In this document: piece after piece, positions 6,298 through 64,000 of the stretch | Layout of the letters: each line of letters starts with the position of its first letter | Position numbering within the stretch: position 1 is the stretch's first letter | IMG/VR virus record: IMGVR_UViG_2595698524_000001 | Location: 159,990 to 223,989 of that record | Strand: one strand, 5' to 3' | From: a virus | Lineage: Duplodnaviria; Caudoviricetes | Length of the DNA stretch: 64,000 bases | Position numbers and translations under genes: made by a program | Notes under the pieces: model-generated | Told to the model about the DNA's origin: nothing | What the model saw: the letters and a program-made list of their open reading frames with translations, nothing else | Database searches by the model: none

Positions 6298-6793
6298 GTT
6301 ACCCCGTTTTTACAATCAACCGGATAGCATGGAAATCCTAACCGTGACCATGCCGGTGATTGTAGAGGCGTGTCGTTTAGATGTGTCAATTGAACAGACC
6401 GGTGAGATGGCTCCAACAGTTGCCACCGCGTTTGACATTGATGCCTATCTTGATTCGCCTCACTTGGTTAAGCCGTACGAGATGCGAGTAGTGGTTGCAC
6501 CTGAACACGGGGCGATTTATCAGGTTCCTCAACCTGCGCCATTGTTCGGCGATGCGTTATCGTTTGATGTCATGCGTGCAACATGGTTCCGTCCAGGTGT
6601 TGGGATGAGTTATCGCAAGTGGGCTCTTGCGACGTGGGATGACAATGCAGACACAATCACTGTGTTAGCATCACTCATTGACTCACCACTCACGCCGGTA
6701 GACGTTGTGGTCAGCGATGTCGAAGGTCGAACTAACGCATGCATTATCACCCCTGATATTTGCTACGTACGCATCGACCCAAGCAAACAATAA
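6281..6793 (+). CDS. Hypothetical protein
   Basis: ORF overlapping previous stop, ends at bidirectional terminator; start at 6281 inferred. Confidence 0.7.
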   Translation: MKSLLELPRFYNQPDSMEILTVTMPVIVEACRLDVSIEQTGEMAPTVATAFDIDAYLDSPHLVKPYEMRVVVAPEHGAIYQVPQPAPLFGDALSFDVMRATWFRPGVGMSYRKWALATWDDNADTITVLASLIDSPLTPVDVVVSDVEGRTNACIITPDICYVRIDPSKQ

Positions 6794-12956: not shown

Positions 12957-13759
12957 AGAAAGTCATCAGTGGCGTAATCACTTCCCTCAAAACTTCCATT
13001 CGTAATGAGTGGGATACGTGGTGGGAAAGTGAATTCAGCGTGGCAACACCTGAGCATTATCGACCGTACGTTGAGGGTATCAACATCTCCGGCCAGTTAA
13101 GTATCGAGCAGGTGAAGTCCCTGCCGTACTGGACGATGGCGAACGACGCGGTGCAGGAGTTCCAGAAACGTCTGTTCGAAGCGCTGTTCAAAGAGTATAA
13201 CTTGCGGGACACCTACGACCATTCGCATTTCATGCATGTGCTGTTGGATGTGTTCGGTGAAACGTGGGATAACGACCTGCAAGTGCTGCTCGACAAAGTG
13301 GATACCCACGAGTGGGAACACCGTGATGCGTGTGACGTGTTCGTTAAGAACATGATTACCACGTTCATGGACCAGCTTGTGGAAATCATGACGTCAGAGT
13401 GGTCTGAGGCGTTCTACTTCGGCTTCTTTGAAGAGATGGATGGGATTGAGGAAAGTCTGCCAGCGTTGGGTATCACACCACTGGTCGACCTGGCCGATTT
13501 CTCTGCTGACCCACAAAGTCGTATCTGCATCATTGAGAGCGACGATGTGTCTTACGAAGCCATTAAGACGTGGGACGGTTCACAAGACGTAATCGAATGG
13601 TTACGTCAGGGGCTGGAGAACGCGCATTTGCAACGCATCATCTGGCTGGTTAATGGGCAAGTCGAACTCGACATGGCTCACCGTACGCTGAACACTGGCG
13701 ACATTATTAAGAAGTGCCTGTTAAAATTAGGAGCAAACCCAAGTGCAGTTAATCATTGA
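12953..13759 (+). CDS. Acidic hypothetical protein
   Basis: ATGA overlap; 268-aa ORF. Confidence 0.75.
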   Translation: MKKVISGVITSLKTSIRNEWDTWWESEFSVATPEHYRPYVEGINISGQLSIEQVKSLPYWTMANDAVQEFQKRLFEALFKEYNLRDTYDHSHFMHVLLDVFGETWDNDLQVLLDKVDTHEWEHRDACDVFVKNMITTFMDQLVEIMTSEWSEAFYFGFFEEMDGIEESLPALGITPLVDLADFSADPQSRICIIESDDVSYEAIKTWDGSQDVIEWLRQGLENAHLQRIIWLVNGQVELDMAHRTLNTGDIIKKCLLKLGANPSAVNH

Positions 13760-59760: not shown

Positions 59761-60329
59761 GTTACGTATATTTTCGCGATGTTGATGCCATGATAAACAG
59801 TGAGTTCGACCACCGTAAGGCCATCAACTGGGAAGCCATTAACAAACACAACCCACTGACCCGTAGCCCCGGGGTTAATCATCATTATCTCTTAGGCTTG
59901 CGTAAAGACCAGAAGTGGGAAATTGTTCCAATCCTGTACAGTACCGGGCGAGCATACATCAACGTTGATTTACGCCAGCACGACCTGAAGGCCATGTTCG
60001 ATACACTGCAATACGTCTGCCCACACTGCATCTTACAGGTCTTGCACAAAATCGACACCACGCCCGAAGGGTTCGTAGTTGAGCAGCAAGAGTTCACCAA
60101 CGGACATTGTGCGCAAATTAACCAGAACACACCGCCGACGTATATGTTCATCAGTGGCGAGTCGTGGATGTCTGACCTGATGAGCGTGATGGCCGAACAC
60201 CAACGCGGTAAGCATATCTCAGTAACCGTTCACAAATACCACCTCGACCCGGGCGGTGCGGTAATGATGAACCTTGAATCTAACGGATTCATTGGTTATC
60301 GTTCCTGCATCTTCAAGAACTTTCTCTAA
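59757..60329 (+). CDS. Hypothetical protein
   Basis: ATGA overlap. Confidence 0.75.
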   Translation: MSYVYFRDVDAMINSEFDHRKAINWEAINKHNPLTRSPGVNHHYLLGLRKDQKWEIVPILYSTGRAYINVDLRQHDLKAMFDTLQYVCPHCILQVLHKIDTTPEGFVVEQQEFTNGHCAQINQNTPPTYMFISGESWMSDLMSVMAEHQRGKHISVTVHKYHLDPGGAVMMNLESNGFIGYRSCIFKNFL

Positions 60330-60354
60330 GGGGCTTCGGCCCCTTTATTTTTTT
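60328..60354 (+). terminator. Intrinsic terminator
   Basis: AAGGGGC-TTCG-GCCCCTT plus T-run. Confidence 0.85.
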
Positions 60355-60357
60355 GGC

Positions 60358-60397
60358 AAAAAAAGAAAAAAAGCCCTACTCCAAAAGTGGAGTAGGG
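60358..60397 (-). terminator. Intrinsic terminator (minus strand)
   Basis: CCCTACTCCA-AAAG-TGGAGTAGGG preceded by A-run on + strand. Confidence 0.85.
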
Positions 60398-60403
60398 TCG
60401 GAA

Positions 60404-61726
60404 TCAATTATTAACTGATGCCAAGGCGCGTATCATGAAATACAACAACAGTGCATTTCGTAAAGCAGCTAAGTCAGCGTCACGGCGTAAATGGGTATGT
60501 TTCTTCGCTAACTTTTCAATCCGGGTTCTGAGGGTCAGAATATAGGGATCTGTTGTTTTCGAAGCCATGTACAGCGCACGCAACTTATTCAGCAAGAATG
60601 CCACATCAGTGAAGTTGACGCGATTGGTGGTGACGTAATCAAATGCATGAGTCAGCGTGTCCACCATTATCTGTTCAACCTCACCACGCTCTTTCCCGTA
60701 AGGTAGACTGGTGATATAAACGATGATGGTCTTCAGAGCGTTTGGGGACGCCTTAGGGACGATTTCTAACACAACCCGGGCTAACTCCTCCTTGTACATG
60801 CTTGAAAGCGACATAGAGGCTTCCAGGAGGTTTTGCTTGGCAGTGTTAAAAGCTGAGACACGGTCACGCAGGATAGTCTCCCCGTTGACGTCAACCATCG
60901 CCGACTGTACCAGCATACGCGAGTTATCACGACGCACCACATCGAGGATAGCGTAGTAATCTTTCACGGTTTGTTTGGTACGCGTATTCAGGTCGGAGAT
61001 GAAGTAGATAATCTTCGGGGTATCCTGAAAACGTTTGATGTTGTCGTAATGCGGGGATTCTTTCGACACGAAATACTCAGCACGCGCACGGATATGTTTG
61101 CCCCAAGAGCCGACTTGTTTAATGTCGAACTTCATGGACAGTGCAGCATACGTGGCTTCCGCTGCCGGTAAGTCAACCGGACGCTTAAAGAAGTGCGAAT
61201 AAATCGAGGTGTAGAACTTAAACTGCAGTAACTCGACTAACGACACAATTGCATCATATGCTAATTTATCTTTATCGATTAGCGAAAGGTAACGATGCAC
61301 GAGGTAAACAACCGTTAAGTTGAATACGTCGCCTGTGACGTTCCATTCCATCACCATGTCTGAAAGCTTTTTATCGTTCAGCAATTCGGTCAGATAATCT
61401 TCATCCACCTGAATCACTTCGTCGAAGAAACGGTCACGGTCTGTGTCGTAAAAGCGGATGGTGTGCACGCCGAGAAGAGCAGAGCCGAACCATTCGACGT
61501 TGGTATCCCGGCTGAAGATAGTTGACACGTAATGCAGAATACGTTTATGCATTCGAACATCAATGGTTACTTTACTGAACAACTGGTCGTAAATCTTCCG
61601 CACCGAACTTGGCATCGCTGATTCCGTACCCAGTACACGGTTGGTCAACTCATACACGCCGGTACTGAAGTTATAGCGTAAAGGTTCATCTTGGTTATCC
61701 CAAGAAGGCGGGTCGTAGGTACGCAT
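60404..61726 (-). CDS. Conserved helical jumbo-phage protein, possibly virion
   Basis: 440-aa ORF, AAGGG upstream, own terminator. Confidence 0.75.
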   Translation of the reverse strand: MRTYDPPSWDNQDEPLRYNFSTGVYELTNRVLGTESAMPSSVRKIYDQLFSKVTIDVRMHKRILHYVSTIFSRDTNVEWFGSALLGVHTIRFYDTDRDRFFDEVIQVDEDYLTELLNDKKLSDMVMEWNVTGDVFNLTVVYLVHRYLSLIDKDKLAYDAIVSLVELLQFKFYTSIYSHFFKRPVDLPAAEATYAALSMKFDIKQVGSWGKHIRARAEYFVSKESPHYDNIKRFQDTPKIIYFISDLNTRTKQTVKDYYAILDVVRRDNSRMLVQSAMVDVNGETILRDRVSAFNTAKQNLLEASMSLSSMYKEELARVVLEIVPKASPNALKTIIVYITSLPYGKERGEVEQIMVDTLTHAFDYVTTNRVNFTDVAFLLNKLRALYMASKTTDPYILTLRTRIEKLAKKHTHLRRDADLAALRNALLLYFMIRALASVNN

Positions 61727-61755
61727 AGCTTGCCCTTAATTGTGAAAAGTTTTTC

Positions 61756-61775
61756 GGATATATGTAATTACGTGA
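61756..61775 (+). promoter_or_regulatory. Putative early promoter
   Basis: GGATATATGTAATTACGTGA; TTGGAGCTA RBS downstream. Confidence 0.6.
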
Positions 61776-61797
61776 CATTCAATTGGAGCTATTAAAA

Positions 61798-62976
61798 ATG
61801 ATTAGAGATTACCTGAAGAAAACTGACTGGTCCAACCGCATCGGTAGCATCATCCCTGAGAACGAACCGGTTGAACTCTGGGTTTATCCCCACGGCTGTG
61901 TCTGCTCCGTCATGCGAGTAGACGGCGTATCCGTTATCAAGAACGGCCATTATACCGCGGTTAACACGACCCTCGGTAACATGCTGCTCGAAGCAGGCAT
62001 CGAAGGTGAGTTCATCCTGTACTCGACCGAAGCCATTCCACAGAACACCTCTCGTTGGTTGACTTGGTGGTTAAGTAACCAGCCGGGTCCGGACGATGAA
62101 AAGATTTCCACCATTCAGGTCACCACCTTCGGCATCGTGCCGAAGAAGACCTTACCATTCCAGGTCACTGTAATCCGTCCGCAGTTGATGCGGGCTATTG
62201 ACGTCACTCCGACGGTGATGACTAAATCACGCGACCGTCGGGTCAGTATTTTCATCGTCAAGCGTAGCAACGGTGAAGCATACGAGCTGGAACCTTCCCG
62301 TCGTGTGGAAGCGACCATCCTCTCTTACACCGACTACGGCTATATCGTTCGGACATCCCCGGACAACGCCATCTTCCGTGTTCCACGCATCGCTCGTCGC
62401 GTACTCGACGCATTGAACCGTGCGCGAGTTACAGCGAAGGACTTGTGTGGTCAACGGGTCACCATCCAGTACACGATGAAGACTGACGGTCTGAGACTGT
62501 CCAGTTATAAATCACCGCTTCTTCTTCGGGCACACAACCTCGAGGAGATTAACGATGGGGAGCAAAGTGATGTTCCCTCATACGAAAACCAATATCCGTT
62601 TAACTACGCGCCGAGTGTAAAATCGGGCAGCTTAACACCGACACGTTGCTCACGTGCTTCTATCCGTCTTACGGAGAACGGCATTGAGGGTTACGAAGAC
62701 GGTACCAACACCGTGCTGTTCACATTGAAGCCGACAACTGAAGAAGGGTTGTACGTTGCAGCATTGTCGAAAGGCGAGGGGTTGGAGCTGTGGGGCTTTG
62801 AAAGCGACTTCGCAATCGATAGCCTGAACCCGAAAGCGTTCGTGCGTTGTGTTAGCGATAACCTGTTCCAACAAACTGGCTATACGCTGGATACGTTGGG
62901 GCTGTATTACTCGACTCCAGAAGGTGCCTGGGTAGGCGACCGTTCTCTGGCAAGTGCAGCAACCGCTGCGGCTTAA
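61798..62976 (+). CDS. Hypothetical protein with degenerate ATP-dependent DNA ligase-like architecture
   Basis: IEGEFI, FIVKR, ELEP...EATIL and GQRVTIQY...SPLLLR occur in ligase motif order; motif I Lys absent. Confidence 0.5.
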   Translation: MIRDYLKKTDWSNRIGSIIPENEPVELWVYPHGCVCSVMRVDGVSVIKNGHYTAVNTTLGNMLLEAGIEGEFILYSTEAIPQNTSRWLTWWLSNQPGPDDEKISTIQVTTFGIVPKKTLPFQVTVIRPQLMRAIDVTPTVMTKSRDRRVSIFIVKRSNGEAYELEPSRRVEATILSYTDYGYIVRTSPDNAIFRVPRIARRVLDALNRARVTAKDLCGQRVTIQYTMKTDGLRLSSYKSPLLLRAHNLEEINDGEQSDVPSYENQYPFNYAPSVKSGSLTPTRCSRASIRLTENGIEGYEDGTNTVLFTLKPTTEEGLYVAALSKGEGLELWGFESDFAIDSLNPKAFVRCVSDNLFQQTGYTLDTLGLYYSTPEGAWVGDRSLASAATAAA

Positions 62977-63000
62977 CTCCATTAGATATCGAGGTATAAA

Positions 63001-63453
63001 ATGACTATTGCCCTGAGTGTTGGCGAAGAACACTTTAAATGTGACGCAGAATTAACGTTTGACTTCAACCCTAACTGGTTACTGTTCAACAACCGTGCTA
63101 CCCGCAATGCGGTGGTGCACAAATTTGTAGATGCCATCAAAAACCCGGACTTCGTTATCATCGAACGGACGTTGGTTGTCGATGGGAAGTGTCAGAGCAC
63201 CTGTTATATCTTCAACGGTGCCAAGATTGATAACCAGAAGGTTACGTTCTGGGATGAGTCTAAACAGCAGTATTGGGTTAACGGCATCTGGCTCAGTGCT
63301 GCCAAAGAACTGAGCTATCGTCTGCGTTACATTGCCAGTAACAAGGAGCAGAAGACCATGACCATTCAACCGTTCGCGGGCGCTACCTTTATCGATAGCG
63401 CGGTGATGGAAATCGTAAAGGAATACCTTGTCGGTCGTAAAGACTACTGGTAA
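63001..63453 (+). CDS. Hypothetical protein
   Basis: GAGG RBS; followed by terminator. Confidence 0.75.
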   Translation: MTIALSVGEEHFKCDAELTFDFNPNWLLFNNRATRNAVVHKFVDAIKNPDFVIIERTLVVDGKCQSTCYIFNGAKIDNQKVTFWDESKQQYWVNGIWLSAAKELSYRLRYIASNKEQKTMTIQPFAGATFIDSAVMEIVKEYLVGRKDYW

Positions 63454-63462
63454 GGGCAATAC

Positions 63463-63498
63463 GGCAGGTACCCTTCGGGGTACCGCCTTTCTTTTTTT
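63463..63498 (+). terminator. Intrinsic terminator
   Basis: GGCAGGTACCC-TTCG-GGGTACCGCC plus T-run. Confidence 0.85.
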
Positions 63499-63504
63499 GA
63501 TCGG

Positions 63505-63641
63505 AGAAAAAAGAAAGCCCTCCCCAAACGGAGAGGGCAGTTCCCGGTAAGCGAGGGAACATGAAAAAGACATATCTCGAAGTTCACCTGCTGCTACAGG
63601 TTCACTCCTATACCGGCTAGAAGCAACGCAAAACTTCCAGC
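63505..63641 (-). ncRNA. Candidate ~137-nt structured small RNA
   Basis: Promoter motif TTTTTTAC-N15-TATG ends at 63641; three hairpins; terminator GCCCTC..GAGGGC + U-run at 63505-63538; no credible ORF. Confidence 0.5.
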
Positions 63642-63667
63642 ATATTAAGCAGTACAGTTGTAAAAAA
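63641..63667 (-). promoter_or_regulatory. Putative promoter TTTTTTAC-AACTGTACTGCTTAA-TATG
   Basis: Same architecture as the motif upstream of uvsX. Confidence 0.55.
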
Positions 63668-63714
63668 GTTTTTGGGAAGACCCCTTCGGTTGACTTCCAG
63701 AGACTGAAAATTAC

Positions 63715-63742
63715 TTTTTTTACAACACATTCTTATCCTTTG
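63715..63742 (+). promoter_or_regulatory. Putative divergent promoter TTTTTTTAC-AACACATTCTTATCC-TTTG
   Basis: Near-perfect inverted copy of ACTTTTTTACAAC; N15 spacing; imperfect TATG. Confidence 0.4.
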
Positions 63743-63743
63743 G

Positions 63744-63764
63744 AAGGGGGGATCAAGGGGGGAT
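63744..63764 (+). repeat. Direct repeat AAGGGGGGAT x2 heading a C-depleted AT-rich tract
   Basis: Copies at 63744-63753 and 63755-63764. Confidence 0.85.
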
Positions 63765-63935
63765 GGATAAATTAGTTATTAGTTAAAATGGATAATGAGA
63801 TTGAAATGAATGGATTAATTGATGGTAATCAATTAGGAATGAATGTAAATCGAATTAGACAGTTAACTAATACCCTATAGTCAGGTAGGGTAAGATAGGT
63901 ATCCTTACAGGGATACCGTTATTGCTTATTTTTTC

Positions 63936-63956
63936 GGATATATATTACTTCAGTGA
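63936..63956 (+). promoter_or_regulatory. Putative early promoter for a gene beyond the window
   Basis: GGATATATATTACTTCAGTGA contains the phiKZ early consensus TATATTAC; TTGGAGCTAACC RBS at window end. Confidence 0.7.
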
Positions 63957-64000
63957 GAGTTAAGCCAATTCTCAACCTATCCCTTTACTTGGAGCTAACC

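Follow-up and report, generated by a model that had tools for sequence, protein, structure and literature searches.

The window analyzed here, a stretch of 64,000 bases, forms the end of an Erwinia jumbo phage genome of 223,989 bp and itself ends in a gene-free spacer of 547 nt (63454-64000). According to crude calls of open reading frames (ORFs), this spacer is the longest stretch of the genome without an ORF of at least 50 aa, the runner-up measuring 535 nt. Within it, a minus-strand unit at 63505-63667 combines a promoter-like motif, a strongly folded and non-coding body and an intrinsic terminator. An initial annotation had proposed that this unit gives rise to a phage small RNA (sRNA) of ~137 nt, possibly regulatory, antisense or origin-associated. 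Its non-coding nature, its sense-strand structure and its conservation across the genus were borne out, while the antisense role was not. The interpretation to which we give somewhat more than even weight is that the unit is a self-contained non-coding phage transcription unit, which specifies a probable trans-acting regulatory RNA and forms one half of a divergent pair (Table 1).

DNA and protein matches place this phage in the genus Derbicusvirus, a group of Erwinia jumbo phages for which seven records representing four distinct phages were retrieved, namely pEa_SNUABM_38, Derbicus, EarlPhillipIV and Phobos. Counts out of five refer below to the alignment of the whole spacer from the window phage and these four relatives.

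Table 1. Features of the spacer and its flanks, in window coordinates
Feature	Position	Strand	Basis or remark
150-aa gene	63001-63453	+	full-length match to phrog_23397
Terminator of the 150-aa gene	63467-63497 (stem 63467-63484 with T-run)	+	terminator scan; back to back with the sRNA terminator
Predicted non-coding RNA body, ~137 nt	63505-63641	-	fold, conservation, broken ORFs
Intrinsic terminator	63505-63538	-	GCCCUCUCC-GUUU-GGGGAGGGC (63538-63517), tail UUUCUUUUUU
H3, GUUCCC/GGGAAC	63540-63560	-	in Phobos, one pair changed from U-A to G-C (compensatory) and one cell unpaired
U-rich stretch GAGAUAUGUCUUUUU	63562-63578	-	invariant columns G64-T78; single-stranded or weak 4-bp hairpin
H2	63579-63608	-	outer GGAGU/ACUUC, 2x2 GA/GA internal loop, inner ACCUG/CAGGU, invariant apex CCUGUAGCAGCAGG
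H1, 5'-terminal hairpin	63616-63641	-	loop core UUGCGUUG invariant (bases T11-T20)
TATG, 15 nt past the AC box	63641-63644	-	G63641 = predicted +1, by analogy with phiKZ
T-run and AC box TTTTTTAC	63660-63667 (TTTTTT 63667-63662, AC 63661-63660)	-	predicted -26 to -19
Inter-promoter spacer, 40 nt	63673-63712	none	48.8% identical to Derbicus, 27.5% to Phobos
Twin promoter-like motif TTTTTTTAC-N15-TTTG	63715-63742	+	predicted +1 = G63742
Second candidate RNA, ~195 nt	63742-63936	+	tandem AAGGGGGGAT, long imperfect AT-rich hairpin, terminator hairpin 63898-63917, distal T-run
Genome gene 1	starts right after the window end (ATG = first base of the record)	+	other flank of the spacer

Promoter-like motif, fold and conservation of the minus-strand unit

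The minus-strand unit opens with TTTTTTAC-N15-TATG (63667-63641), which had been reported initially and proved to be a recurrent motif of this phage. The TTTTTTAC box is unchanged in 5/5 Derbicusvirus sequences, TATG is invariant and recurs genome-wide at a fixed distance from the T-run, and the motif as a whole is kept in all five while the DNA just upstream is not. Genome-wide, the pattern TTTTTAC-N13-15-TAT[AG] occurs 15 times, against a mean of 0.75 (maximum 2) in 20 Markov-1 simulations, and a looser pattern retrieves 20 sites in which the purine always lies 20 nt past the A of AC. Eleven of these 20 sites lie 39-96 nt ahead of an ORF preceded by a Shine-Dalgarno sequence and five further ones at 226-334 nt, and of the remaining four, one faces a spurious antisense ORF at the sRNA site itself and three, including the plus-strand twin described below, have no ORF. 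The motif composed of T-run and AC, N15 and TAT[AG] is thus both over-represented and placed shortly upstream of same-strand genes. A PHROGs scan covering 14 of the 16 downstream ORFs (all except those at 294 and 334 nt) assigned seven of them to DNA polymerase (two ORFs), DnaB-like helicase, DprA-like, SbcC-like, UvsX-like and nuclear-shell-like proteins, the last through a secondary match (E 1e-8), the other seven having no assigned function. Because of these downstream genes, the motif is considered to mark a class of replication and recombination genes. The UvsX-like gene (window 15583) shows the same arrangement, as had been pointed out initially, with five T instead of six.

This motif is reminiscent of the promoters of phiKZ. 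For that phage, late promoters are described as T-3ATG+1 and as being read by the non-virion RNA polymerase (PMC7598289), early promoters as carrying a T-rich element upstream of -19, and middle promoters as carrying a TACT element centred at -22 (PMC7598289, PMC8244752). The initial annotation had taken the G of TATG as +1 on the basis of phiKZ, and the purine of the window-phage motif does occupy the start position of the phiKZ late promoter (PMC7598289). As in the phiKZ promoters so described, TATG or TAT(A)G places a purine at the presumed +1, and a T-rich or TAC element lies ~20-26 nt upstream. In contrast, the window-phage motif joins both elements at a fixed 15-nt spacing and is found ahead of genes for replication, recombination and the shell, not of late genes. 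It resembles, by this analogy, a fixed-spacing combination of phiKZ late, early and middle elements, and transcription would be expected to start at G63641. A literature search retrieved no paper on Derbicusvirus or SPN3US transcription and no mapped Derbicusvirus start site.

Downstream of this putative start, the 137-nt RNA has a minimum free energy (MFE) of -56.2 kcal/mol (z = -4.34) and none of 200 shuffled sequences folds as well. The corresponding RNAs of Phobos, Derbicus and pEa_SNUABM_38 fold independently to the same layout (z = -3.28, -5.14 and -5.89, respectively). In 4/4 phages, the complement folds worse, by 19.4, 10.8, 15.1 and 17.0 kcal/mol, which is expected if the minus-sense RNA uses G-U pairs; the plus-sense fold of the stretch in the window reaches only -36.8 kcal/mol (z = -2.2). 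The three stems described initially were recovered, namely GCUGGAAG/CUUCUAGC (63641-63634 with 63623-63616), ACCUG/CAGGU, and GUUCCC/GGGAAC (63560-63555 with 63545-63540). The single-stranded AUAGGAGUG linker described with them is unpaired in part, but its GGAGU pairs with ACUUC in both the MFE and the consensus fold. Among the hairpins, the H1 stem is altered in Phobos (2-nt deletion, three unpaired cells), two outer pairs of H2 swap G-C and G-U in Phobos while its five inner pairs never vary, and H3 has a competitor in the window's own MFE structure, in the form of a CCGGU/ACCGG pairing. Invariant blocks are located mostly in unpaired parts, i.e., the H1 loop, GCCGGUA-AGGAGU, the H2 apex and GAGAUAUGUCUUUUU.

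At the end of the RNA body, a G+C-rich hairpin runs straight into a U-tract of the transcribed strand, as in intrinsic terminators. A terminator scan found this hairpin independently (9 pairs, 7 of them G-C, tail TTTCTTTTTT), and 5/5 sequences retain it, with compensation at one pair and two changes from C-G to U-G. Its tail and that of the plus-strand terminator behind it form a perfect 11-nt inverted repeat. The initial observation that this terminator has no gene to terminate holds, as there is no real minus-strand gene upstream and both neighbors are encoded on the plus strand. An antisense ORF of 164 aa that overlaps the 150-aa gene is spurious, since it runs through two terminators and is frame-shifted in the relatives.

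Sequence comparison further indicates that this body is under constraint. It is 90.7% identical to Derbicus and 69.5% to Phobos, the corresponding values being 83.9% and 87.1% for the minus-strand promoter and 80.2% and 70.6% for the DNA of the neighboring 397-aa gene. The stretch between the two promoters shows no significant fold (z from -1.5 to +0.46 in four sequences) and therefore serves as a neutral yardstick, against which the RNA body is judged to be constrained; for the same reason, a "variable hairpin" considered between the promoters was rejected. The unit is kept where its flanks are not: when the window phage is compared with Derbicus, no DNA match is found for gene 1 (genome 1-495) and that of the 150-aa gene is confined to the first 185 nt, yet the spacer is retained. 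The conserved spacer resembles a fixed point within a gene-exchange hot spot.

Covariation was assessed on a model-guided alignment, fitted to the structure and comprising three lineages, in which 96.9% of 193 pair cells are paired, as compared to 43-57% when partners are slid by 1-3 columns. Two pairs are compensatory (one in H3, one in the terminator) and five one-sided changes keep pairing.

A divergent plus-strand unit

The core of the promoter-like motif is one arm of a perfect 11-nt inverted repeat, GTTGTAAAAAA/TTTTTTACAAC (63657-63667 and 63716-63726), whose arms are 48 nt apart. The second arm belongs to the twin motif, which is 96.7% identical to Derbicus and 76.7% to Phobos and whose TTTG variant is also found 87 nt ahead of the protein gene at genome position 5236. 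On the plus strand, this inverted copy would drive a further structured RNA. The corresponding unit folds with a z of -4.19, is 87.2% identical to Derbicus and 78.1% to Phobos, and its sense strand folds better than the complement by 9-20 kcal/mol in three distinct sequences (MFE of -49.9 versus -29.8, -46.8 versus -28.7 and -41.2 versus -32.2 kcal/mol). Its two tandem AAGGGGGGAT elements (within 63744-63786) are the sole copies in the genome. They are followed by a mini-ORF of 7-10 codons, MD(K/N)(L/F)VIS, which reads as open in all five phages of the alignment and could be a leader peptide or a chance occurrence. Since the inverted promoter core precedes a second structured and terminator-ended unit, the spacer holds a divergent pair of candidate RNAs, a pairing that the initial annotation had not noted.

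The two units differ in their relation to genes. No minus-strand gene follows the minus-strand unit, and what lies downstream is antisense to plus-strand genes, so that it does not qualify as an RNA derived from a 5' untranslated region (5'UTR). The plus-strand twin does have the position of a 5'UTR-type RNA because it lies upstream of genome gene 1. Gene 1 has its own promoter-like motif, TTTTTTCGGATATATATTAC, directly after the plus-strand unit. This motif belongs to a second promoter-like type, CGGATATAT(G/A)T, mostly found after a T-run and represented by five sites, none of them on the minus strand (window 63928-63950, 61755, 59117 and 19312; genome 55508); two of these sites directly precede gene 1 and the 397-aa gene. 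Elsewhere in the genome (69733-69790), two T-run and AC boxes on opposite strands face each other within ~50 nt, in an intergenic gap of 191 nt.

Evaluation of the proposed RNA and of alternative explanations

We propose that a phage-own RNA polymerase would initiate at G63641, from a promoter of the class used by replication, recombination and nuclear-shell genes (T-run and AC at about -26 to -19, TATG at -3 to +1), and that the intrinsic terminator would end the transcript near 63505-63510, yielding an RNA of ~137 nt. Such an RNA would start with a hairpin at its 5' end and finish with the U-tailed terminator hairpin, with two further hairpins and an invariant U-rich single strand in between. 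The 5'-terminal hairpin, the unpaired invariant patches and the U-rich strand beside a U-tailed terminator fit a stable trans-acting regulatory RNA. We infer not only that the unit is transcribed between these ends but also when and how its product operates: it most likely acts in trans as a regulator during the replication phase, and it would pair or be bound via its invariant unpaired patches, UUGCGUUG, GCCGGUA-AGGAGU, the H2 apex and GAGAUAUGUCUUUUU.

Homologues were sought by several means. The initial annotation had suggested a comparison with Rfam; in Rfam 15, no curated family matched the spacer stretch at the gathering threshold. The best overlapping matches, Betaproteobacteria_toxic_sRNA (20.5 bits versus a threshold of 50) and suhB/mmgR (18.1 versus 41), cover only the 3' ~70 nt (63502-63572), where H3 and the terminator are located. 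Across the syntenic tracts of four other genera, the sole Rfam match above threshold is a tRNA in phiEaH2, and a tRNA/tmRNA scan of the window found none. Two pattern scans of IMG/VR found only Phobos and Derbicus, and a protein-anchored scan found only Derbicus; four extra IMG/VR matches were discarded, as they share a C-rich block of 19-20 nt and no other significant similarity with the spacer. A single metagenome scan returned one chance match, alike over 35 nt only. An RNA covariance model scored 119-176 bits on the five known copies and at most 21.6 bits in the records of SPN3US, ChrisDB, Wellington and phiEaH2, never at the syntenic site. The syntenic non-coding tract of Wellington (6396-6748), a phage of another genus, nevertheless contains TTTTTTAC-N15-TATG, followed by ~315 nt and a terminator (6722-6739) without an annotated same-strand gene; it folds with a z of -2.4, has no Rfam match and has an extremely AT-rich stretch just upstream. 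In the window, the same model gave a weak match of 15.9 bits at 60360-60478 on the minus strand, at the 3' end of a 440-aa minus-strand gene, which is most likely a generic hairpin-plus-terminator resemblance.

For expression, four RNA-library runs out of 24 public runs containing near-identical DNA were inspected through their contigs, which are unstranded. One run yielded the whole genome as a contig of 224,364 nt (~95.5% identical over 60001-63994) and, as a whole-genome contig in an RNA library, it says nothing on transcription. The three others yielded short contigs of low and patchy depth (63352-63585, 63165-63540, 63277-63513 and 63755-63931), none of which covers 63586-63754; at such depth, this gap speaks neither for the RNA nor against it. 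The contig at 63755-63931 coincides with the predicted plus-strand unit, which, given its lack of strand information, is a weak hint. Near-identical DNA (63-74% of sampled 31-mers from window 63300-64000) was found in runs labelled as money, wastewater, food, gut and freshwater metagenomes, and close relatives of the window phage appear to be widespread.

Several of these results weigh against a functional minus-strand sRNA. The pattern, metagenome and covariance-model scans found no homologue outside Derbicusvirus, and the short contigs reach only the 3' part of the RNA (63505-63585), where they are continuous with the plus-strand gene. For the putative start site and the promoter class, the argument is by analogy with phiKZ, which is only distantly related. 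Among 39 pairs, 27 never vary, and the observed number of compensatory pairs is matched by 19 of 500 shuffles; all six unpaired cells occur in Phobos, the most distant sequence, mostly in H1, and the Phobos H1 stem is the weakest point of the model. With three lineages, covariation is thus weak, suggestive rather than proof. Finally, a blastn-short search of the RNA against the phage genome gave a longest exact match or complement of 13 nt, which is at chance level, and a duplex scan against 825 crude start regions of the phage ranked spurious ORFs on top with no credible outlier.

The proposed antisense role fared no better. Between the sRNA and the plus-strand RNA, the longest complement is 6 nt with Watson-Crick pairs (195/200 shuffles match or beat it) and 11 nt when G-U pairs are allowed (111/200), and no pairing was found with the gene-1 leader. 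Above-chance complementarity was thus found neither to the phage genome nor to the divergent RNA nor to this leader, which leaves the antisense role unsupported. A type I toxin-antitoxin pair, in which a divergent sRNA is complementary to the mRNA of a conserved small hydrophobic ORF, does not fit either: the 30-aa plus-strand ORF is broken in the relatives, and the complementarity between the plus-strand RNA and the sRNA does not exceed chance.

The failure of the target searches would be explained if the RNA had no function. A purposeless minus-strand start could arise from the inverted TTTTTTACAAC arms of a bidirectional promoter, and the terminator would serve solely to halt this and any other leftward transcription ahead of the plus-strand gene block, which it would otherwise enter in antisense. 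The perfect inverted repeat of the promoter cores, the two-way stop formed by the back-to-back terminators and the plus-strand orientation of all neighboring genes would suit this scenario, which we nevertheless consider unlikely. A functionless body should drift like the 40-nt inter-promoter spacer, yet it is far better conserved in both Derbicus and Phobos, with long invariant blocks located outside the terminator. Moreover, compensatory and G-C/G-U changes preserve its internal hairpins, and a plain insulator needs no 100 nt between start and terminator.

Conservation could also reflect a constraint on the DNA itself, if the spacer were a replication origin or a packaging-related region in which the promoters open or prime the DNA and the hairpins are incidental. 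Besides the exceptional length of the ORF-free tract, this explanation draws on the wider group to which the phage belongs. The 397-aa neighbor protein has homologues in 61 phage records, and because SPN3US is among them (~40% identity, annotated SPN3US_0263) and the gene order is common to the window phage and SPN3US-like phages, the initial label "SPN3US-like" is correct. In SPN3US, ChrisDB, Wellington and phiEaH2, a long non-coding tract occupies the equivalent place, after the terminase-proximal gene block. A DNA-level role is also favored by the promoter class, common to replication and recombination genes, and by the plus-strand unit, which contains the 120-nt window ranking third in the genome for AT content (25.8% G+C versus 50% overall).

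Other features speak against it and make it, in our opinion, improbable. Both units fold in a strongly strand-asymmetric manner through G-U pairs, indicating selection on RNA, and both are terminator-ended, unlike R-loop primers. The minus-strand body has 50% G+C, the cumulative GC skew does not turn at the spacer, and the spacer contains no canonical DnaA box, while ATGGATAA also occurs outside it. The origin-associated role suggested initially for the minus-strand RNA is accordingly open but weak, the G+C content, strong terminator and lack of a GC-skew switch counting against it. In T4 (oriF and oriG) and at the primary origin of T7, replication is primed from promoters. The spacer is similar in having replication-phase-class promoters in a non-coding stretch, with an AT-rich tract directly downstream in the twin; unlike these origins, both units end in terminators and fold as RNA, and the minus-strand unit is not AT-rich. 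The combination of promoter, AT-rich unwinding element and persistent unterminated transcript is absent, the twin having the AT-rich tract but also a terminator. A more plausible origin than the spacer may be the genome's most AT-rich 120-nt window (13243-13362, 20.8% G+C), located where 311 nt separate the DNA-polymerase gene block from the nuclear-shell-like gene.

A broader proposal, which we hold to be distinctly improbable, is that the divergent pair marks a control region for genome replication, or another genome-wide process, in SPN3US-like nucleus-forming phages. It is suggested by the replication-class promoters which would drive both units and by the group-wide conserved position of this longest non-coding tract. 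In that case, the plus-strand RNA, on the AT-rich side, could be a primer or activator that the minus-strand RNA regulates.

Terminator read-through from the plus-strand 150-aa gene might instead place the hairpins in a 3' untranslated tail of its transcript, with no separate minus-strand RNA. This possibility comes from the RNA-library contigs, which in three runs extend unbroken from inside the gene to 63513, 63540 and 63585. These contigs are unstranded, however, and the libraries may contain DNA. In addition, the plus-sense fold is much weaker than the minus-sense one, the T-tract of the second hairpin is on the minus-strand side only and the conserved promoter motif is oriented for a minus-strand RNA, leaving such a tail very unlikely.

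Lastly, translation of a small protein from a 37-57-aa minus-strand ORF deserves hardly any credence: ORFs of 37, 47 and 57 aa do exist and pEa_SNUABM_38 carries an annotated 45-aa coding sequence (CDS) here, but 2-nt and 1-nt indels among the relatives shift the frame of every small ORF, Phobos lacks the ATG of the 37-aa ORF, two of the ORFs run through both terminators, and the small CDSs annotated in two of the four relatives (pEa_SNUABM_38 and Phobos) are on opposite strands without mutual correspondence, while Derbicus and EarlPhillipIV have none wholly inside the spacer, the downstream gene (gp239, gp240) only overlapping its distal end. The small-protein reading was rejected on account of these frame-breaking indels and non-corresponding CDSs.

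Relation to known RNAs and significance

Trans-acting sRNAs of enterobacteria that depend on Hfq have their own promoter, a length of ~50-250 nt, a 5' or internal seed, an A/U-rich strand beside a hairpin and a U-tailed terminator. The minus-strand unit is similar, by its sequence, in its promoter-like motif, its size, its U-rich strand and its terminator with a long U-tail. In contrast to these sRNAs, it is phage-encoded, presumably read by a phage polymerase, and it showed no above-chance target complementarity in the phage genome.

Closer parallels come from phages. In phiKZ, small intergenic and 5'UTR-derived RNAs have been found by ONT-cappable-seq and confirmed by northern blot, examples being the 141-nt transcript of TU237 and an RNA of ~71 nt before PHIKZ221 (PMC10914365). 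Like these RNAs, the candidate belongs to a nucleus-forming jumbo phage with its own RNA polymerases, and it is conserved in the genus and predicted to be short (~70-200 nt), to be structured and to run from a phage start site to an intrinsic terminator. No sequence or model similarity to the phiKZ RNAs was detected. Furthermore, most phiKZ candidates are leaders of a same-strand gene that arise when transcription terminates prematurely, whereas the minus-strand unit points away from all genes and only the plus-strand twin is leader-like. Experiments revealed the phiKZ RNAs, while the unit of the window phage is predicted from sequence. As for ncRNA1 and ncRNA2 of PAK_P3, the same source describes them as processed RNAs of 3' untranslated regions, abundant, genus-conserved and of unassigned function, without a start site of their own (PMC10914365); the minus-strand unit, unlike them, has its own promoter-like motif. 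In our judgment, the minus-strand unit is a credible and well-delimited candidate for a phage sRNA, and phiKZ already provides examples of this kind (PMC10914365).

The cataloguing of non-coding RNAs in nucleus-forming jumbo phages has only just begun, essentially in phiKZ, and none has an assigned function. The present locus offers a clean case in another branch, that of the SPN3US-like Erwinia phages, with its own promoter-like motif and terminator, oriented away from every gene, kept despite exchanges of the flanks and paired with a second unit. The work also provides, for replication and recombination genes of the genus, a well-supported motif that can guide annotation. If the RNA is made, its small size and the ease of deleting it would suit it to studies of the role of phage sRNAs; otherwise, one would still have to explain why a gene-free tract of 0.5 kb is so strongly conserved. 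Should the divergent pair prove to mark a region controlling replication, it would give a first handle on where and how such phages begin to replicate their genomes.

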